The position numbers and the translations under genes are program-made. DNA of 64,000 nt from Minisyncoccota bacterium (lineage in GTDB: Bacteria; Patescibacteriota; Minisyncoccia; Phycocordibacterales; GWA1-40-21), in the NCBI GenBank assembly GCA_041663045.1, contig JBAZRH010000001.1, forward strand, positions 276,403 through 340,402, written 5' to 3'. Below the pieces are notes generated by a model. The model saw only the letters and a program-made list of their open reading frames with translations, was not told the DNA's origin and searched no databases. The number at the start of each line of letters is the position of its first letter. Position 1 is the stretch's first letter. This document shows positions 3,940-44,767 of this stretch, one piece after another.

Positions 3940-4974
3940 TTATTTTACTACCTCGTATTTTCCGTCTTTATTTTTCTTGAAATACTTCTTATTCTGCAGA
4001 TTGATAACTATCGTATTTTCCTTGACATATCTCTCTTTCAAAACTTTCTCTATAATCTCCTGCTTTGTAAGAGGGCCGCTTTTCTCCAGAATCTTCTTAA
4101 TAACATCTTTGACAACACCGCTCATATAACCCCATTCTGCAAGAGCATATAAACCTCTGCCTACAAGTACAAATCTAGGGTCTTTAATAAGTTCATTGTG
4201 AGTTGTGGCGACATGGGCTTTCTTATTAAATACTGTTGCTATGGCTTTTGCTACTTCTCTAAAGTGTATTGGTGAACCATGTTTCCTAATGACAAGATAT
4301 GCATAGTCTCTCATACCCTTTGTGCTAATATTTGGAGATTCTGATCTACCCCATTCACCCAAAGGGTTTTTTCCAACCTTCTTTGAAAGGGCAAGCCATC
4401 TTTTCGCGATTTCTTCTGATCTATATTGTTCAGCAACATCTTCCACATAACCCAAGAAAGATTTTATCATTTCTTGTTCTGTAACAAGTTCATTATCTTT
4501 CAAACTTTCATACAACTTCTTTAGAGAGTTGTGAATTTTATCTGCAAGTTGTTCGTCAATAAACCACCTGTGTTTAAAATCTTCGTCTTCCTTAATCTTC
4601 TTAAACGGATGTCCAACAACAAGAATAAAGTTCAAGTGGCTTTGAGTGCTTAGATCTTTCGAAACAAAATCGAGAAGATCTTGCTCCACAACTATTCCAC
4701 CGAGGTTATGAATAATCTTCTCTATTTCATCAAATGATGGTTTTTCGTCAGTATAGTTTTTAGATTTTCTTATGATGTTTAGAGCGTGATTTTCTATTTG
4801 TCTCACCCTTTCTCTTGTAATACCATAGGTCTTACCTATTGCATCTAGAGTCATCGGCTCAGGATTTTTCCCGAGACCATATCTCTTTGTAATAACGTCT
4901 CTTGATCTCTCTGGAAGAGCCAAAAGCAACTTCTTAGAAACCTGTTTCGGTTTAAAACTTATTGTTGTTGACAT
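3940..4974 (-). CDS. Sigma-70 region-4-like HTH protein with a C-terminal HARE-HTH-like winged helix
   Basis: RYGLGKNPEPMTLDAIGKTYGITRERVRQIENHAL is a region 4 HTH. The C-terminus (GSPIHFREVAKAI...YALAEWGY) resembles a HARE-HTH domain. The start is more likely the internal Met at 4974 than 5031. Confidence 0.6.
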   Translation of the reverse strand: MSTTISFKPKQVSKKLLLALPERSRDVITKRYGLGKNPEPMTLDAIGKTYGITRERVRQIENHALNIIRKSKNYTDEKPSFDEIEKIIHNLGGIVVEQDLLDFVSKDLSTQSHLNFILVVGHPFKKIKEDEDFKHRWFIDEQLADKIHNSLKKLYESLKDNELVTEQEMIKSFLGYVEDVAEQYRSEEIAKRWLALSKKVGKNPLGEWGRSESPNISTKGMRDYAYLVIRKHGSPIHFREVAKAIATVFNKKAHVATTHNELIKDPRFVLVGRGLYALAEWGYMSGVVKDVIKKILEKSGPLTKQEIIEKVLKERYVKENTIVINLQNKKYFKKNKDGKYEVVK

Positions 4975-5064
4975 GCTATTAATATTTATTAAAACTGATA
5001 TTGACGAATATCGTACAAAGCATACTATCACCGATGCAGAATAAAGTCAAATGGGTATTGACTT

Positions 5065-7935
5065 TTAAATTACAAAGTTGATTATTTTGTTTTTTACGAA
5101 GATAGTCTTCAGTATTTTCTGACCGGAGAGCCACTTGACTATATCTTGATTTGCTAATGCCTCCTTTCTAACATCTTCTTCGGAAACATCGCTTGACATG
5201 GGAAGCGTTGCTCGGACTTTACCATTTATTTGTACTACTATTTTCACTTTTGCTGATTTTATTTTGGCTTCATCATATTTTGGCCAAGGTTCCACTGCAA
5301 GAAGCTTTTTATTGCCAAGATTAGCCCATACTTCCTCGCACAAGTGCGGAGCAAATGGCGAAAGGATTTTGATAAAAGCCAGATAAGTTTCCTCATCAAT
5401 TTTTTCTTGAGCCTCTAAATGGTTTACAAATATCATCATCGCGGACACGGCGGTATTTGCATTAAACGATTCTATATCTTCCGTAACTTTTTTAATTGTC
5501 TTGTGTAAGAGTGATTGGGTGTCATTTGAATCAATAGTCTTGTCTGAGATTTTCTCCTGTAATTTCCAAACTCTTTCCAAAAATCTTCTTGAACCCACCA
5601 TACTATCTGTACTCCAAGAAATTTCCTGCTCAAAAGGCCCCATGAAGGATTCATAGATTCTCAAAGTATCGGCACCGACATTTTTCACTACTTCATCCGG
5701 ATTTACAACATTGCCATATCTCTTACCCATTTTCCTACCATCGGAACCAAGTATCATACCTTGATTGCGAAGCTGTTTGAAAGGTTCTTTTGTACTTACA
5801 ATACCGATATCATAAAGGAATTTATGCCAGAAACGAGCGTAGATAAGATGTCTTGTAGCATGCTCGGCCCCTCCAACATACATATCCACTGGAGACCAGT
5901 ATTTCTCTTTTTTGGGATCAATCAAAGCTTTACTATTCTTCGTATCCATATATCGGAGATAATACCAAGATGATCCTGCCCATTGAGGCATTGTATTTGT
6001 TTCCCTTTTCGCTTTTTCTCCGCATTTCGGACATTTTGTATTTACCCATTTTGAAATAGCAGCGAGAGGCGATTCTCCTGTGCCTGTCGGTTCATATGAC
6101 TTAACTTTTGGAAGCTTGAGTGGCAAATCTTTTTCTGGGACAGGGACAGCTCCGCATTTCTCACAATGCACCACGGGGATAGGCTCGCCCCAATATCTCT
6201 GTCTTGAGAAAACCCAATCTTGAAGTTTATAATTTTTCGTCATCTTTCCACCGGCAAATTCGGTAATCTCTTTCATTATTTCGGTATTTTTTTTGCCGTC
6301 AAATTTTCCAGAGTTTATCATCACGCCGTCATTTGTATAGGCTATATCTCCCTTTTCTAATCTCTCTAGCCAAATATCCATTTCTGCATGATTCAAAGTG
6401 CCGATAACTATATCTTTCACATTCATCCAAATCACTTCATGCTTTTCCTTCTCTTCCTCGGACATCTCATCTCTCTCTTCGTCTTTCAAATCAAAGCAAA
6501 TGGCGTTTGTATATGCAATTCTGTTTTCATCTTTATGCGCTGCAAAATATTCTGCACGGACTTGTCCACCCAAGACTTTTGGATTGACAAGGTTTTTATA
6601 ACCAGTCTCTTCCCAAGCCTCTCTTCTTGCTGCATCTATAATATTTTCACCTTCATCTACTCCTCCCATTGGAAAAGTCGTCCATGGTTGCTTTTTCCAT
6701 TTCAAGCAAATGATCTTACCGTCTTTAGGATTGCGAATAATTACATGCACGTTTCTCCTTTCAACACTTTTCTTTCCTGCGACTGGTGGATTTCTCTTAT
6801 CAATTCTCTCTGGGATAATCACCTCTTTTATCGGTAAATTATATTTCTTGGCAAAAGCAAAATCGCGGTCGTCGTGTGCGGGCACTGCCATCACGCAACC
6901 TGTACCATAGTTGGCTAAAACATAGTCTGCAATAAATACCGGCACTTTTTCGCCGTTGACTGGATTAATAGCTAATATTCCGCCGAGCTTCACGCCGGTC
7001 TTTTCTTTACCTTCGGCAGTTCTGTCTATTTCACTTTTATTTTTTATTTCTTTTCTGTATTTTTCTACTTCAGCCCAATTTGATATGTGAGATTTATATT
7101 CGTCTACTATCTTATGCTCTGGGGCAATGACGACATAAGATAAGCCAAATAAAGTGTCCGGTCTTGTTGTGAATACCTTTATTTCTCCGATCTCTTTCTT
7201 AAATCTTGAATCATGAATCTTGAATCCTATCTCTGAGCCTTCCGAACGCCCTATCCAATTCTTCTGAAGCTCTTTGATATGCGTAGGCCAATTCAGTGCA
7301 TCAAGATCGTCCAAAAGTCTATCGGCATAATCACGGATTTTGAGCACCCATTGTCGCATCGGTTTTTTTTCTATTGTCGTCCCGCATCTTTCACATTTAT
7401 CACCGTCCAGATCTTCATTTGCCAAACCGGTCTTACAAGATGGGCACCAATTTATCGGCTCATAACTTTCATAAGCCAAACCTTTTTTGAAAAGCTGTAA
7501 GAAAATCCATTGCGTCCATTTATAATACTTTGGATCAGTGGTATTTATCTCGCGAGACCAATCGTAATTCAAACCCATTATTGAAATCTGTTCTTTAAAT
7601 CTTTTTACATTTTTCTTTACGGCAATTTCGGGATTGATTTTCATCTTCATCGCGTACTGCTCCGCAGGCAAGCCAAAAGCGTCCCAGCCCATAGGGTGAA
7701 GCACATTAAAACCGTTCATCTTTTTGAATCTTGAGTAAATATCGGTAGCTATATATCCGCGAGGATGCCCAACATGAAGCCCTTCGCCAGATGGATATGG
7801 GAACATATCCAATACATAGAATTTCGGTTTATTCGAAGTATCTTCCGTCTTAAAGGTCTTTTTGTTTGCCCAAATTTTCTGCCATTTCTTTTCAATTTCT
7901 GAATGATTATAAATGTTTACCTTTTTTGATTTCAT
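5065..7935 (-). CDS. leuS: Leucyl-tRNA synthetase carrying an inserted Nudix hydrolase domain
   Basis: HVGH motif, TRPDT editing-domain motif, WVFSRQRYWG and a KMGKR (KMSKS-like) motif identify LeuRS. A roughly 140 aa insert (residues about 389-530) carries a perfect Nudix box, GGVDEGENIIDAARREAWEETGY. Confidence 0.9.
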   Translation of the reverse strand: MKSKKVNIYNHSEIEKKWQKIWANKKTFKTEDTSNKPKFYVLDMFPYPSGEGLHVGHPRGYIATDIYSRFKKMNGFNVLHPMGWDAFGLPAEQYAMKMKINPEIAVKKNVKRFKEQISIMGLNYDWSREINTTDPKYYKWTQWIFLQLFKKGLAYESYEPINWCPSCKTGLANEDLDGDKCERCGTTIEKKPMRQWVLKIRDYADRLLDDLDALNWPTHIKELQKNWIGRSEGSEIGFKIHDSRFKKEIGEIKVFTTRPDTLFGLSYVVIAPEHKIVDEYKSHISNWAEVEKYRKEIKNKSEIDRTAEGKEKTGVKLGGILAINPVNGEKVPVFIADYVLANYGTGCVMAVPAHDDRDFAFAKKYNLPIKEVIIPERIDKRNPPVAGKKSVERRNVHVIIRNPKDGKIICLKWKKQPWTTFPMGGVDEGENIIDAARREAWEETGYKNLVNPKVLGGQVRAEYFAAHKDENRIAYTNAICFDLKDEERDEMSEEEKEKHEVIWMNVKDIVIGTLNHAEMDIWLERLEKGDIAYTNDGVMINSGKFDGKKNTEIMKEITEFAGGKMTKNYKLQDWVFSRQRYWGEPIPVVHCEKCGAVPVPEKDLPLKLPKVKSYEPTGTGESPLAAISKWVNTKCPKCGEKAKRETNTMPQWAGSSWYYLRYMDTKNSKALIDPKKEKYWSPVDMYVGGAEHATRHLIYARFWHKFLYDIGIVSTKEPFKQLRNQGMILGSDGRKMGKRYGNVVNPDEVVKNVGADTLRIYESFMGPFEQEISWSTDSMVGSRRFLERVWKLQEKISDKTIDSNDTQSLLHKTIKKVTEDIESFNANTAVSAMMIFVNHLEAQEKIDEETYLAFIKILSPFAPHLCEEVWANLGNKKLLAVEPWPKYDEAKIKSAKVKIVVQINGKVRATLPMSSDVSEEDVRKEALANQDIVKWLSGQKILKTIFVKNKIINFVI

Positions 7936-10606: not shown

Positions 10607-10609
10607 ATG

Positions 10610-10681
10610 TGACCCTACAGAGAATCGAACTCTGATTACAGCCTTGAGAAGGCCGTGTCCTAACCGTTAGACGATAGGGCC
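10610..10681 (-). tRNA. tRNA-Glu (anticodon CTC)
   Basis: The reverse complement GGCCCTATCGTCTAACGGTTAGGACACGGCCTTCTCAAGGCTGTAATCAGAGTTCGATTCTCTGTAGGGTCA folds as a cloverleaf with a TTCGATT T-loop. The anticodon loop is TTCTCAA. No CCA is encoded. Confidence 0.85.
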
Positions 10682-30008: not shown

Positions 30009-31514
30009 ATGAAAAACAAGCTATCAGAAATCGGCAAGCTCATCACCGAGCTTCGTGAGAGACGCGGTATCACACAATCGGCTTTTGCTGAAAAGCTTGG
30101 CACAACACAAAGCGTAATCGCCCGCATAGAAAGCGGTGAGCAAAATCTAACCACAGAAATGCTTGAGAAAATCGGCGAAGCGCTAAATAAAGAAATCTTT
30201 ACAATATCGAAAGGTGCGATGAATCTTGAAATAGAAGGCGGACACAAACTCTCCGGCTCGGTGATTACAAAAACATCCAAAAACGGTGCGATGGGTATTA
30301 TCTCCGCTTCCCTACTAAACAAAGGTAAAACACTTTTAAAAAATGTGCCAAAAATTGAGGAAGTTTACAGAATGGTAGAAATCTTGGAAAGCATCGGTGT
30401 ATCTATCAGGTGGATTGGAGATGATCTGGAAATCGAGGTCAAGAAAATTGATCTCAAAAAGATAAATAAAGAATCCGCCGAGAAAACCAGAAGTATTATT
30501 ATGCTCATCGGCTCACTTTCACACTTTTTCAAGAAGTTTTCCCTACCACAATCCGGCGGATGCAAGCTCGGCTCGAGGACTGTCACCCCGCATTTTTTCG
30601 CCCTTGAGAATTTCGGTGTAAATATAGTCGCGAAATCAAAAAGTTATGAAATTTCGGCAAGTAAACTTAAGCCCGCAGAATTCGCCCTTTATGAAAGTGG
30701 AGATACCGTCACGGAAAACGCCATAATGACCGCCGCCCTTATCCCAGGGAAATCCGTCATCAAATTCGCCTCCGCCAATTATATGGTGCAAGATCTGTGC
30801 TTTTTCTTGGAAGGGCTTGGTGTAAAAATAGAAGGTATCGGTACGACCACCCTCACTGTGCATGGCGTATCGGAAATAAATAAAAATATTACATACTACC
30901 TCGCCGAAGATCCGATCGACTCAATGTTTTTCATAGCCACAGCAATACTCACAAATTCCTCTATAAAAATAGAACGCTGCCCGATAGATTTTCTTGAAAT
31001 AGAATTGCTAAAACTCAAAAAGATGGGCTTTAAATATAAATTATCAAAAGTCTATAAAGCACTGAACGGTAAGACGAATCTTGTAGACATCACCACTTCC
31101 CCTTCCCGACTCACAGCACTTACCGATAAAATAGAAGCGAGGCCCTTTCCTGGGCTCAATATCGACAACCTGCCTTTCTTCGCAGTCATCGCCACACAAG
31201 CCGTCGGGCAAACTCTCATACACGATTGGGTTTATGAAAAAAGAGCGATTCACTACAAGGAGCTAGACAAGCTCGGTGCCGATACTATTCTCGCCGACCC
31301 GCATAGATTTTATGTAAATGGAAAGACAGATTTGCGACCGACAGAAATAATCTGCCCGCCAGCTCTCCGCCCCGCCGCGATTATTTTGATAGGAATGCTT
31401 GGTGCAAAAGGCAGATCGATTTTGCGAAATGTTTACAGCATAAATCGCGGATATGAAGACATTGTGAAGAGGCTGAATGGTTTGGGAGCGAAGATAAAGA
31501 TGTTGAGGGATTAG
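30009..31514 (+). CDS. murA: XRE-family HTH domain fused to UDP-GlcNAc 1-carboxyvinyltransferase (MurA)
   Basis: The N-terminal 65 aa are an XRE HTH (LRERRGITQSAFAEKLGTTQSVIARIESGEQNLT). The remainder is MurA, with GGHKLSGSVITKTSKNGAMGII, catalytic Cys in GGCKLGSRTVTPH, and C-terminal INRGYEDIVKRLNGLGAKI. Confidence 0.8.
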   Translation: MKNKLSEIGKLITELRERRGITQSAFAEKLGTTQSVIARIESGEQNLTTEMLEKIGEALNKEIFTISKGAMNLEIEGGHKLSGSVITKTSKNGAMGIISASLLNKGKTLLKNVPKIEEVYRMVEILESIGVSIRWIGDDLEIEVKKIDLKKINKESAEKTRSIIMLIGSLSHFFKKFSLPQSGGCKLGSRTVTPHFFALENFGVNIVAKSKSYEISASKLKPAEFALYESGDTVTENAIMTAALIPGKSVIKFASANYMVQDLCFFLEGLGVKIEGIGTTTLTVHGVSEINKNITYYLAEDPIDSMFFIATAILTNSSIKIERCPIDFLEIELLKLKKMGFKYKLSKVYKALNGKTNLVDITTSPSRLTALTDKIEARPFPGLNIDNLPFFAVIATQAVGQTLIHDWVYEKRAIHYKELDKLGADTILADPHRFYVNGKTDLRPTEIICPPALRPAAIILIGMLGAKGRSILRNVYSINRGYEDIVKRLNGLGAKIKMLRD

Positions 31515-40048: not shown

Positions 40049-40591
40049 ATGCAAAATAACGGATCAAAAATCTTTGTCGGAATGTTAGTGATGACAAAAT
40101 TGAAATTGTTTGAAAATTCACCAGAAGAACTTGTAGCTATACTACAAAGAAGAGGTAAGATAGAATCAGAAAATGGAAAAGGATTTAAATGGCAGAAATT
40201 TTCTGGCTTATGTGAAGTAACATCGTATGGAAAAGCAGAAGAGGGAGAAAGTTGGGAACAAGCATTAGAAAGAGAGATGAATGAAGAGTTGGGAAATGAA
40301 GTTGCTACTGCGATCTTAAAATCTGAGAGAAAGATAATACATAAAATAACCGAGGATGACGGGGATGAGGTCACGGTTTGTGTATGTCTCTTACCAGCAG
40401 ATTTTCTAAACAAGCTTAAATTAGAAGTCTCTACTGGTGGTATCGAAATAATAACAAGGGGTGATTTAAATAAAGTTAAATATTTCAGATTTGGGACATT
40501 AGAAAACATAACATCTACAGATCTAAACGAAATAATAATAACAACACTACCGATTGAGAAATTGAAAGAATCCTTTGAAATATTTGGATAA
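40049..40591 (+). CDS. Nudix hydrolase
   Basis: Nudix box GKAEEGESWEQALEREMNEELGN. The start is uncertain (40016, 40049 or 40079). Confidence 0.65.
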   Translation: MQNNGSKIFVGMLVMTKLKLFENSPEELVAILQRRGKIESENGKGFKWQKFSGLCEVTSYGKAEEGESWEQALEREMNEELGNEVATAILKSERKIIHKITEDDGDEVTVCVCLLPADFLNKLKLEVSTGGIEIITRGDLNKVKYFRFGTLENITSTDLNEIIITTLPIEKLKESFEIFG

Positions 40592-40609: not shown

Positions 40610-42127
40610 ATGCCATATGAAGATATAATTTCATTGATGGACTCACCATCGAAAGATGATGTAGCGCTTATAAAAAAAGCAACAACTTTTGCTGAAGAAG
40701 CACATAAGGACATAAAGAGAAAATCTGGTGAACCTTATTTCAACCATGTCTTTGAGACAGCTAAAACTCTAGCAAGCTTCAAGACTGACTCTGCAACGAT
40801 AGCTGCAGGGCTTTTACATGATTCAATAGAAGATGGTGTGGCGACAGAAGAAGAAATAAAGAAAGGATTTGGAGATGAAATACTCTTTTTAGTAAACGGG
40901 GTTACAAAGCTTGGAAAAGTAAAGTATCGAGGAGCGGAAAGACATATAGAAAGCTTGAGGAAATTCATGGTGGCAATGTCACAAGATATTCGAGTACTCA
41001 TCATTCGTCTTGCCGACCGTCTTCATAATATGAAGACTTTACAATATGTCCGACCCGACAAACAAAAGAGAATTGCCCTTGAAACTCTCGAGATTTACGC
41101 ACCACTCGCCTACCGTCTTTCTATAAGGAAACTTTCACGTGAGCTTGAAGACCTCTCGTTTGAATATGTAAGCCCAGAGGAATATGATGGTACAGTAGTT
41201 CTCTTAAAACAAAAGAAAGACGAGACCTTACCACGATTGGAGAAATTTATAAAATCTGTAAAGAAAGCCCTAGCTAAGGAAAGAATGACAAATATAAAAA
41301 CAGACTATAGGCAGAAAGGAATATATAGTCTCTTTCAAAAACTCAAATCTAAAGGAAACGATATAGAAAAGGTCTATGATATATTGGCGTTGCGTGTAAT
41401 GCTACCCGATGTCCAAGATTGCTATAAAGCTCTCGGAATAATACACGGTGTGTGGAGACCGCTTCCAGGAAGAATAAAAGATTATATAGCGTTTCCAAAA
41501 CCAAACGGCTATCAAAGCTTGCATACTACAGTTTTCACTGGTGACGGTTCAGTAGTAGAAGTACAGATAAGAACGGAAGAAATGCACAGAAATGCTGAAT
41601 TCGGTATCGCCTCTCATATTTCATACAAAGATAGTCACAAAAATGGGAACAAAAGTTCTGATATTGATTGGTTTAGACAATTTCTACCAAGGACTATTAA
41701 TTTTGCAAAGGTAAATAAATTAAATAATAAAAAAGAAATGCCAGAGTGGATTACAGAACTTGCTGATTCTCAAGATGGAATAAAGACTAGTGGAGAAAGA
41801 GAGGAATTCTTAGAAGATCTAAAGGCCGACTTCTTCTGTCAAAGGATTTTTGTGTTTACACCAAAAGGAGAGGTAGTAGATTTGCCTACTGGTTCATCTA
41901 CTCTTGATTTCGCATATGCGATTCATTCTGACGTAGGGGACCACGCAAGTGGAGCGAAGATAAATGGCAAACTCGTAGCCATGAAAACAGAATTAAATAA
42001 TGGTGATATTGTAGAGATTAGCACAAGTAAATCTAGTAAACCAAGTTCCAAATGGTTGGAAATTGTAAAGACGAATATGGCGAAAAGACATATTAATAAT
42101 TATTTGGAGAAGCAGAAGAAAAAATAA
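40610..42127 (+). CDS. rel: Short bifunctional RelA/SpoT-homolog (HD hydrolase + synthetase + TGS domains)
   Basis: HD motif HDSIED, synthetase region (RIKDYIAFPKPNGYQSLHTTV) and a TGS domain. No ACT domain. Confidence 0.85.
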   Translation: MPYEDIISLMDSPSKDDVALIKKATTFAEEAHKDIKRKSGEPYFNHVFETAKTLASFKTDSATIAAGLLHDSIEDGVATEEEIKKGFGDEILFLVNGVTKLGKVKYRGAERHIESLRKFMVAMSQDIRVLIIRLADRLHNMKTLQYVRPDKQKRIALETLEIYAPLAYRLSIRKLSRELEDLSFEYVSPEEYDGTVVLLKQKKDETLPRLEKFIKSVKKALAKERMTNIKTDYRQKGIYSLFQKLKSKGNDIEKVYDILALRVMLPDVQDCYKALGIIHGVWRPLPGRIKDYIAFPKPNGYQSLHTTVFTGDGSVVEVQIRTEEMHRNAEFGIASHISYKDSHKNGNKSSDIDWFRQFLPRTINFAKVNKLNNKKEMPEWITELADSQDGIKTSGEREEFLEDLKADFFCQRIFVFTPKGEVVDLPTGSSTLDFAYAIHSDVGDHASGAKINGKLVAMKTELNNGDIVEISTSKSSKPSSKWLEIVKTNMAKRHINNYLEKQKKK

Positions 42128-43401: not shown

Positions 43402-43485
43402 GCCGGAGTGGCGGAATTGGTAGACGCGCACGACTCAAAATCGTGTTTCGAAAGGGGTGAGGGTTCGAGTCCCTCCTCCGGCACA
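43402..43485 (+). tRNA. tRNA-Leu (anticodon CAA), long variable arm
   Basis: GCCGGAGTGGCGGAATTGGTAGACGCGCACGACTCAAAATCGTG...GGGTTCGAGTCCCTCCTCCGGCA. The anticodon loop is CTCAAAA. Confidence 0.85.
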
Positions 43486-44692: not shown

Positions 44693-44696
44693 TTTG

Positions 44697-44767
44697 CGGG
44701 CGATGGAGGAATCGGACCTCCGACAGCGGTTTTGGAGACCGCAGTTATACCACTTAACTAATCGCCC
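44697..44767 (-). tRNA. tRNA-Trp (anticodon CCA)
   Basis: The reverse complement GGGCGATTAGTTAAGTGGTATAACTGCGGTCTCCAAAACCGCTGTCGGAGGTCCGATTCCTCCATCGCCCG has the anticodon loop CTCCAAA. Confidence 0.85.

Follow-up and report, generated by a model that had tools for sequence, protein, structure and literature searches.

Aminoacyl-tRNA synthetases (aaRSs) are among the best-studied enzymes, and CP1, the editing domain of leucyl-tRNA synthetase (LeuRS), is both a drug target and a model of proofreading. Eukaryotic synthetases carry appended domains, and AlaX and YbaK/ProX are free-standing trans-editing proteins. The LeuRS enzymes of Thermus and Escherichia coli contain a leucine-specific domain before the KMSKS loop, although this domain is not universal. 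Outside the synthetases, the Nudix part of NadM is regarded as acting on NAD+/ADP-ribose-type substrates, as an ADP-ribose pyrophosphatase. NadM-Nudix unites a HIGH-superfamily nucleotidyltransferase with a Nudix domain in one polypeptide, and its Nudix part is described as converting NAD+ to NMN (PMC7824862). Here, we analyzed a 64,000-nucleotide stretch of DNA (the window) from a Minisyncoccota bacterium (contig JBAZRH010000001.1, positions 276,403 to 340,402), whose leuS gene encodes a LeuRS that likewise pairs a HIGH-type synthetic site with a Nudix module. In this protein, a complete Nudix domain is set in frame into a surface loop of CP1, as a model reading the letters alone had largely proposed (the original prediction).

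An intact LeuRS with an in-frame insertion in CP1

The leuS gene (5065..7935, minus strand, as are all of its features below) is one unbroken open reading frame (ORF) of 956 amino acids (aa) with a single terminal stop. The bacterial model TIGR00396 (leuS_bact) matched the protein in two stretches with 1039.9 bits against a cutoff of 548.4, the LeuRS of Thermus thermophilus matched it with 745 bits, and Pfam recognized tRNA-synt_1, the PF13603 editing domain, NUDIX (PF00293), and Anticodon_1. An identical database protein (P0001) is annotated as leucine--tRNA ligase from a Candidatus Paceibacterota metagenome-assembled genome. Domain order, HIGH/KMSKS-type motifs, CP1 motifs, and the anticodon-binding and C-terminal domains are those of the bacterial enzymes of T. 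thermophilus (1H3N/2BYT) and E. coli (4AQ7).

The HIGH motif of the synthetic site reads HVGH (residues 54-57; 7765..7776), as it does in 92 of 93 aligned relatives. The part of CP1 that precedes the insert spans residues 225-373 (6817..7263); PF13603 matches here at residues 225-379 (E=2e-62, profile positions 1-146 of 185). Within it lie the conserved T-rich motif TTRPDT (residues 256-261; 7153-7170), YGTG (residues 343-346, within 6817..7263), and the conserved editing aspartates AHDDRD (residues 353-358; 6862-6879). After the insert, residues 532-571 (AYTNDGVMINSGKFDG...KNYKL; 6223..6342), which align with Thermus LeuRS from residue 374 on, lead back to the catalytic core. The second half of the catalytic domain, beginning with QDWVFSRQRYWG (residues 572-583), is followed by the anticodon-binding and C-terminal domains and the stop (5065..6222). 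The KMSKS-type loop is KMGKR in this protein (residues 735-739; 5719-5733) and KMSKR in the clade consensus and most relatives. The leucine-specific domain is absent: Thermus residues ~581-637 are unmatched, with query residue 731 joining residue 736 (window 5656-5760), and the Nudix-less relatives (~802 aa) likewise lack it. Across the 93 aligned relatives, the synthetic and editing motifs are intact and conserved with or without the insert, and the window holds no second LeuRS-like ORF. The gene thus appears, from its motifs, to encode a working LeuRS whose synthetic and editing sites are untouched, and this is probably the organism's own LeuRS.

In the alignment with T. thermophilus LeuRS (1H3N), query residues 9-373 correspond to Thermus residues 4-362 and query residues 530-731 to Thermus residues 374-580, with the 156 residues between them (374-529) standing for the 11-residue CP1 loop at Thermus 363-373. 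Close Nudix-less relatives read ...LPIKEVIS-KAYTEDGVMVNSGKFDG at the site of query residues 374-531, and the cut is exact. The inserted module, residues 374-531 (6343..6816), consists of an N-terminal linker of ~18 aa, a Nudix alpha/beta/alpha core, and a C-terminal helix. It starts 16 residues past AHDDRD and lies inside CP1, since the last ~40 profile positions of PF13603 and the equivalent of Thermus 374-417 come after it. The added length is ~155 aa relative to the Nudix-less relatives and ~145 aa relative to Thermus, close to the ~140 extra residues of the original prediction. Its span of 6333-6783 is in frame (residues 385-534) and marks a real insertion, but the true limits are those given above, and the module is placed inside CP1 rather than between the end of CP1 and the INSG segment.

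A scan with one genome per species found a relative in 149 genomes. Architecture and identity were examined in the best 80, of which 79 have CP1a, Nudix, and CP1b/core in this order in a single reading frame; of the 120 closest LeuRS proteins in the database, about 100 contain PF00293. Together with the single ORF and its one stop, this led us to reject a frameshift, two adjoining genes, or a chimeric assembly. An intein or homing element was also rejected: there is no Hint match in Pfam, and the junctions, between EVI and IPER (I374) and between KGDI and AYT, have no intein-type residues. An artifactual origin in any of these forms is effectively refuted. A known LeuRS-specific domain does not account for the extra residues either, as the insert replaces the Thermus CP1 loop and the leucine-specific domain belongs elsewhere and is missing here, and a chance match to the Nudix box is rejected by the Pfam score (E=7e-16), the confident Nudix fold, and the conserved family. 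The three outcomes named beforehand as fatal to the proposal (a known LeuRS-specific domain, a fortuitous box, and a frameshift) were thus looked at, and none holds. Searches for a defense or phage origin returned only generic matches (PADLOC PDC-S07, E=3e-3; generic Nudix phrogs in PHROGs).

Predicted fold and conserved pocket of the module

Pfam NUDIX (PF00293) matches residues 393-513 of the full protein with E=7.2e-16 and 58.9 bits, against a gathering cutoff of 21.1; with the insert searched alone, E is 2.4e-17, and the overall bit range is 58.9-63.6. The Nudix box GGVDEGENIIDAARREAWEETGY (residues 424-446; 6598..6666) fits GX5EX7REUXEEXGU perfectly, as had been proposed, with the metal-binding glutamates at E439, E442, and E443. 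Downstream lies the putative substrate-specificity loop, or X-loop, with the family-specific motif YFAAHKDENR (residues 463-472; 6520..6549). It contains an aromatic pair, Y463-F464, followed by H467, K468, N471, and R472, with Y463 placed 17 residues past the box.

An AlphaFold2 model of the insert alone, built with 41 aligned homologous inserts, reached a mean predicted local distance difference test score (pLDDT) of 95 and a predicted template modeling score (pTM) of 0.88, answering the question of independent folding that the original prediction had raised. The model has the strand-helix-strand layout of Nudix proteins, with a structured N-terminal linker and a C-terminal helix. Foldseek matched it to 460 Protein Data Bank entries at E<=1e-3, the top matches listed all being Nudix proteins. 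The module is thus predicted to be an autonomously folding Nudix domain. When CP1 and the Nudix module were modeled together (residues 222-572), pLDDT was 90.8 and pTM 0.84, and both linkers scored above 90, which argues for a defined orientation on CP1 and not for a tethered bead. The model predicts a Nudix domain fixed rigidly to CP1. Taken together, the Pfam matches, the Thermus alignment, the Nudix-less relatives, the AlphaFold2 and Foldseek results, and the intact LeuRS motifs bear out the proposal of a complete Nudix domain within LeuRS. The insert of the window protein is acidic (net charge -4, isoelectric point 5.7), and a net negative charge is found for the family module in almost every context.

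Conservation was compared along the protein in 78 LeuRS sequences with a single Nudix. Mean pairwise identity was 0.72-0.78 in the catalytic halves, 0.64 in CP1a, 0.55 in the C-terminal domain, 0.50 in the Nudix core, and 0.47 in CP1b. The linker of the insert is highly conserved. Residues conserved at >=90% include R393, W418, G424, G425, E430, R438, E439, E442, E443, and G445 and, further on, H467, K468, N471, R472, L483, E495, and W503. To count retention of the box by context, 394 family modules were extracted. The core E-x7-RE-xx-EE is kept in 137/152 modules at LeuRS site A (the CP1 loop) and in 100/115 stand-alone proteins, compared with 30/51 at LeuRS site B and 1/5 in prolyl-tRNA synthetase (ProRS); the site-A and site-B labels are error-prone, and the neighbor-joining tree of Nudix modules is weakly resolved, so that it supports coarse groups and not counts of insertions. 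E439, E442, and E443 are 97-100% conserved in each host context, site B and ProRS included, and conservation of the pocket residues stays at 90-100% throughout. At position 463, the X-loop aromatic is Y in 55% and F in 40% of site-A modules, followed by F/Y464. The metal glutamates and the pocket (R393, W418, Y/F463-F/Y464, H467, K468, N471, R472, and W503) are under purifying selection, and the pocket is apparently identical wherever the module sits, since the same residues are conserved across contexts. From the near-invariance of E439, E442, and E443, we infer that the insert is an active Mg2+-dependent hydrolase, with Mg2+ or Mn2+ as the metal.

Distribution, loss, and multiplication of the module in LeuRS

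Identity across the whole insert is 53-72% in the best 80 species genomes, whose titles are Ca. Paceibacterota, Tayloriibacteriota, Yonath-, Wildermuth-, Kaiser-, Moran-, and Buchananbacteria, or "Patescibacteria group"; taxon names of metagenome-assembled genomes are partly unreliable, and a few of the automatic ones here are doubtful. At least 79 uncultured species, and probably about 150, share this design; this answers the question of whether related lineages carry it. It is an ancient in-frame insertion, conserved throughout the Paceibacteria/Parcubacteria. Several genomes with a Paceibacteria-type LeuRS-Nudix bear the titles Gammaproteobacteria, Thermodesulfobacteriota, Saccharibacteria, or Fimivivens (loci L039, L055, L057, L058, L064, L067, L014, and L085), titles that are probably binning or automatic-label errors.

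Nudix-less LeuRS proteins occur at no fewer than five separate places within the Nudix-bearing clade in a neighbor-joining tree of the LeuRS body (793 columns), built, like that of the Nudix modules, on a modest alignment. Examples are P0021, sister to the window protein, P0045/P0052, sisters to P0002, and P0067, sister to P0011. The simplest reading of this tree is that the module was gained long ago and has since been lost, precisely, more than once. Its precise loss on several occasions makes the module an accessory that aminoacylation does not need.

In other members, the module has multiplied. One or two extra family Nudix domains are found at site B, the junction of the core and CP1 (window equivalent ~residue 214-225; ~7260-7295). 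Three Nudix domains per LeuRS are present in P0026, P0038, P0041, P0049, P0057, P0069, P0090, and P0094, and two in P0010, P0024, P0027, P0030, P0042, and P0064. The boxes of the extra copies often show E->Q and R->A changes, with the metal-binding glutamates retained. Furthermore, unrelated domains are inserted in LeuRS proteins of this clade: PF06821, a YdeN-type serine hydrolase, at two sites (P0032, P0072, P0089, P0037, P0069, and P0094); a HAD_2 phosphatase (P0057, P0087, and P0097); a DUF559 endonuclease-like domain (P0104, residues 260-352); and a recurrent module of ~125 aa (P0010, P0015, P0025, and P0050; LNFYYxDVWxAxxxGxKTLETRALNPEEKxRYFGDxKVGDIL...) that has no Pfam match and by eye resembles ASCH/PUA-like domains. 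In this clade, LeuRS is a hotspot where small enzymes have been inserted in frame at several surface loops.

Relatives of the module outside LeuRS

A phmmer search with the insert against 1.84 billion representatives found 484 proteins at E<=1e-3, 173 of them at E<=1e-10. The family appears so far to be confined to Patescibacteria and DPANN. Architectures and hosts were classified for 254 of the 484 representatives: 117 are LeuRS proteins or LeuRS fragments, 120 are stand-alone (<=215 aa), and 17 have other architectures. Hosts other than the stand-alone forms are only LeuRS, ProRS, and aaRS-derived fragments; no host from outside the aaRS world was found among these 254.

The stand-alone forms, of ~160 aa, begin at a Met of their own and share the family signature. 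They form a tight group, set apart from generic Nudix proteins by a drop in score from 1e-44 to 1e-10, and the few members named by their source are from Parcubacteria. One of them (P0327, 168 aa, locus L003, 2563-3069) is misnamed "leuS" by its source, presumably through similarity to the embedded domain. The gene order around a stand-alone member is NUDIX, Exo_endo_phos, aldo/keto reductase, glyoxalase, the family Nudix, PNPOx, a YfbR-like HD nucleotidase, and inositol monophosphatase. At the three loci examined, no stand-alone member adjoined leuS.

In ProRS, the family Nudix lies at about residues 381-537 of archaeal-type proteins of 641-674 aa (P0204 and P0375-P0378), between the anticodon-binding and C-terminal domains; the Nudix-less neighbors of these proteins come from Nanoarchaeota/Woesearchaeota (DPANN). 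The same family therefore appears in both class I and class II synthetases and in two domains of life. A further conserved set of 277-287 aa (P0240, P0244, P0254, P0355, P0358, and P0359; loci L005 and L009) joins Nudix to a mini-CP1 that keeps only part of CP1 (profile positions 79-143 of 185) and lacks the T-rich region. One such gene is flanked by a MutT-type Nudix gene and two Ham1/ITPase genes, and another has HD, Exo_endo_phos, and NUDIX genes nearby. Four proteins of 228-251 aa (P0198, P0201, P0253, and P0351; locus L007) combine Nudix with a domain resembling the HGTP anticodon-binding domain, a weak match (E=1.7e-3).

Other features of the window

The original prediction had pointed to a second, stand-alone Nudix gene at 40049-40591. 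The gene is real (40016/40049-40591, plus strand; box GKAEEGESWEQALEREMNEELGN; Pfam NUDIX, 27.8 bits), but its product is a member of another Nudix family. We rejected the idea that it is a paralogue of the insert, as it scores 12 bits against the family hidden Markov model and matches at the level of the box only. A Rel/SpoT homologue (HD_4, RelA_SpoT, and TGS; 40610-42127, plus strand) begins 18 bp downstream, and this proximity suggests a possible (p)ppGpp-related Nudix. Directly downstream of leuS, the gene at 3940-5031 (minus strand) encodes a protein in which Sigma70 region 4, the sole sigma region, is joined by a HARE-HTH domain; counted from the GTG start, its first ~20 codons look doubtful. 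The ORF at 30009-31514 (plus strand; 501 aa) is an unusual fusion of an N-terminal XRE-type helix-turn-helix (HTH_3) and an EPSP_synthase-fold (MurA/AroA-like) domain. Among the tRNA genes, tRNA-Leu(CAA), one substrate of LeuRS, lies at 43402-43484 (plus strand), 35 kb from leuS; tRNA-Glu(CTC) is at 10609-10681 and tRNA-Trp(CCA) at 44696-44767.

Possible substrate and alternative explanations

The reading that we favor, tentatively and with real reservations, is a working LeuRS with an active small-molecule Nudix enzyme inserted in CP1, most likely acting on ApnN-type substrates and functionally tied to the synthetases. The module would cleave a pyrophosphate bond in a small nucleoside-5'-polyphosphate-X compound. 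Its likeliest substrates would be dinucleoside or adenylylated polyphosphates (Ap3-6N), by-products of aaRS adenylate chemistry, or related non-canonical nucleotides. Aminoacyl-adenylate, which had also been proposed, is an unlikely substrate because its single phosphate is held in a mixed anhydride, with no pyrophosphate bond for Nudix chemistry to act on. LeuRS would in this way gain a third, independent hydrolytic activity, with nucleotide house-cleaning physically tied to synthetases. A functional tie is assumed because the family has been recruited separately into LeuRS (at two sites) and ProRS and is fused to aaRS-derived fragments. Ap3-5N and other adenylylated nucleotides come to a large extent from synthetases, which are one of their main sources (PMC7705103; PMC10148737).

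By sequence and profile, the nearest solved proteins are the Aquifex diadenosine tetraphosphate (Ap4A) hydrolase, lupin Ap4A hydrolase, Ndx1 (Ap6A), AvrM14, Dcp2, DIPP1, and RppH. The A. aeolicus enzyme (3I7U) matches with E=1e-5 to 3e-7 and aligns through the X-loop, and the lupin enzyme (1F3Y) matches with E=3e-7 (template modeling [TM] score, 0.64). The X-loop downstream of the box holds the specificity motifs of Nudix enzymes, where a tyrosine marks ApnA hydrolases (Dunn 1999 rule, PMC5389931); Y463, 17 residues past the box and followed by basic residues, loosely fits this rule. The signatures of ADP-ribose and NADH hydrolases, a proline ~16 residues past the box and SQPWPFPxS, respectively (PMC5389931), are absent, residue 462 being Glu and not Pro and residues 447-531 containing no SQPWPFP-like motif. 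The house-cleaning neighbors of the family genes, together with the acidic module, point to a small-molecule nucleotide substrate.

Several observations weigh against this reading. Similarity to the Ap4A hydrolases is weak, at 15-25% identity and TM scores of 0.55-0.68, with no clearly nearest subfamily in Foldseek, and MutT-like proteins, NUDT15, and RppH score as well as the Ap4A hydrolases do. NCBIfam equivalog scores all fall far under their cutoffs, RppH (PRK00714) reaching 21-29 bits against 116-259. The tyrosine rule holds only loosely, because the X-loop aromatic alternates between Tyr and Phe. LeuRS is a low producer of Ap4A, the high producers being the lysyl-, phenylalanyl-, and histidyl-tRNA synthetases (PMC10148737), which weakens the logic of a hydrolase at the source. 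The window also encodes a class IIb synthetase without an insert, stand-alone members were not next to leuS in the loci examined, and the unrelated hydrolases inserted in the LeuRS of this clade would fit a permissive scaffold with no mechanistic link.

The last of these points leads to hitch-hiking, in which an ordinary pool-sanitizing Nudix, unconnected to leucylation, sits in a tolerant LeuRS loop where an essential host that is expressed constitutively guarantees its expression in a tiny genome. We regard this as a serious though doubtful alternative. Unrelated enzymes (PF06821 at two sites, HAD_2, DUF559, and the ~125-aa module) occupy at least three LeuRS loops, Nudix has repeatedly been lost from LeuRS, stand-alone members lie in house-cleaning neighborhoods away from leuS, and the Ap4A output of LeuRS is low (PMC10148737). 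However, random parking should also have reached other essential proteins, and the hosts among the 254 classified members are only aaRSs or aaRS-derived; co-adaptation is further suggested by a linker that is highly conserved and by packing on CP1 that is predicted to be rigid. Somewhat less probable is a dedicated quality-control or repair module coupled to synthetases, perhaps recruited convergently by LeuRS and ProRS as a third catalytic site, that would act on bound tRNA ends or on adenylate-derived dinucleotides before their release, the serine-hydrolase and HAD inserts adding further steps. If so, the LeuRS of these ultra-small organisms would be a multi-enzyme platform undescribed for any synthetase.

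Another proposal, which we consider unlikely, is that the module serves tRNA ends, removing a 5'-triphosphate, an Np4- or NAD-type 5' cap, or a 3'-CCA pyrophosphate from tRNA docked by CP1 or by the ProRS anticodon-binding domain. The nearest profiles do include the RNA-end enzymes AvrM14 (1e-7), Dcp2 (3e-6), and RppH (2e-5), and the module sits on CP1, to which the tRNA 3' end binds. In the free-standing proteins, Nudix is paired with a catalytically incomplete CP1 or an HGTP-like domain, that is, with tRNA binding and no synthetic site, and the HAD phosphatase inserts of some relatives could complete 3'-end repair. On the other hand, the module is acidic where RNA-binding Nudix enzymes are not, the neighbors of the stand-alone genes are small-molecule nucleotide enzymes, no link to defense or phage families emerged, and the match to the anticodon-binding domain is weak. 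Moreover, no tRNA lesion of this kind is known in these organisms. A non-catalytic role, in which the module would sense nucleotides and tune editing or aminoacylation in the manner of NrtR-type regulators or would gather synthetases into a complex through protein-protein interactions, we hold to be very improbable. Rigid coupling to the mobile CP1 is predicted, site-B and ProRS copies have often lost the box's first Glu and its Arg, LeuRS and ProRS are partners in an archaeal multi-synthetase complex (PMC2094089; a lead and not a test), and Nudix proteins without enzymatic function exist (PMC5389931). Against this stand the metal glutamates, near-invariant everywhere, including site B and ProRS; the full box in 90% of site-A modules; and the stand-alone members, which also keep the box and whose genes lie among enzyme genes.

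If the link to the synthetases that we favor is functional, it would connect aaRS side products (ApnN alarmones or damage metabolites) or tRNA-end chemistry to a synthetase and would provide a handle on nucleotide housekeeping in the CPR and DPANN, whose reduced genomes are poorly understood. If it is not, the clade has an unusual habit of inserting domains into the loops of an essential enzyme and then losing them precisely, which bears on protein engineering and on the packaging of functions in minimal genomes. In either case, CP1 with its built-in, autonomous, and apparently active nucleotide hydrolase offers a natural experiment on how a synthetase can gain a catalytic site.

Comparison with known systems

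Full-text searches found no literature on the LeuRS-Nudix architecture, in agreement with the original statement that an aaRS with a built-in nucleotide hydrolase is uncharacterized. A review of the Nudix clan makes no mention of tRNA or synthetases (PMC5389931), and database names for these proteins are generic ("leucine--tRNA ligase" and "class I tRNA ligase family protein"). The Ap4A hydrolases 3I7U and 1F3Y, Ndx1, RppH, Dcp2, and AvrM14 share with the insert their fold, the full box, and the downstream aromatic and basic X-loop residues. In contrast to them, the insert family has a signature of its own (R393, W418, HKxxNR, and W503), is only 15-25% identical to them, and is embedded in a synthetase. 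The mini-CP1 proteins with Nudix (P0244, P0355, and P0359) resemble AlaX and YbaK in being small, stand-alone, and derived from an aaRS editing domain. Unlike these, they have a partial CP1 with no T-rich region and carry a Nudix domain, and they are probably not editing enzymes.

NadM-Nudix, whose models NF003786 and NF003791 gave weak NCBIfam matches to the window protein, differs in that its fusion is terminal and not a domain within a domain, and it is not an aaRS. The IleRS (isoleucyl-tRNA synthetase) with an N-acetyltransferase, known by the name of an NCBIfam exception model (NF040702, ileS_w_GNAT), is also a class Ia synthetase with an extra enzyme domain, but host and guest are different. 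Relative to T. thermophilus LeuRS, the window LeuRS has a 158-aa enzymatic domain in place of an 11-residue CP1 loop and lacks the leucine-specific domain. Extra domains in aaRSs as such are already known; what sets this system apart is the domain-in-domain placement within CP1, the expansion in copy number, and the parallel in ProRS.

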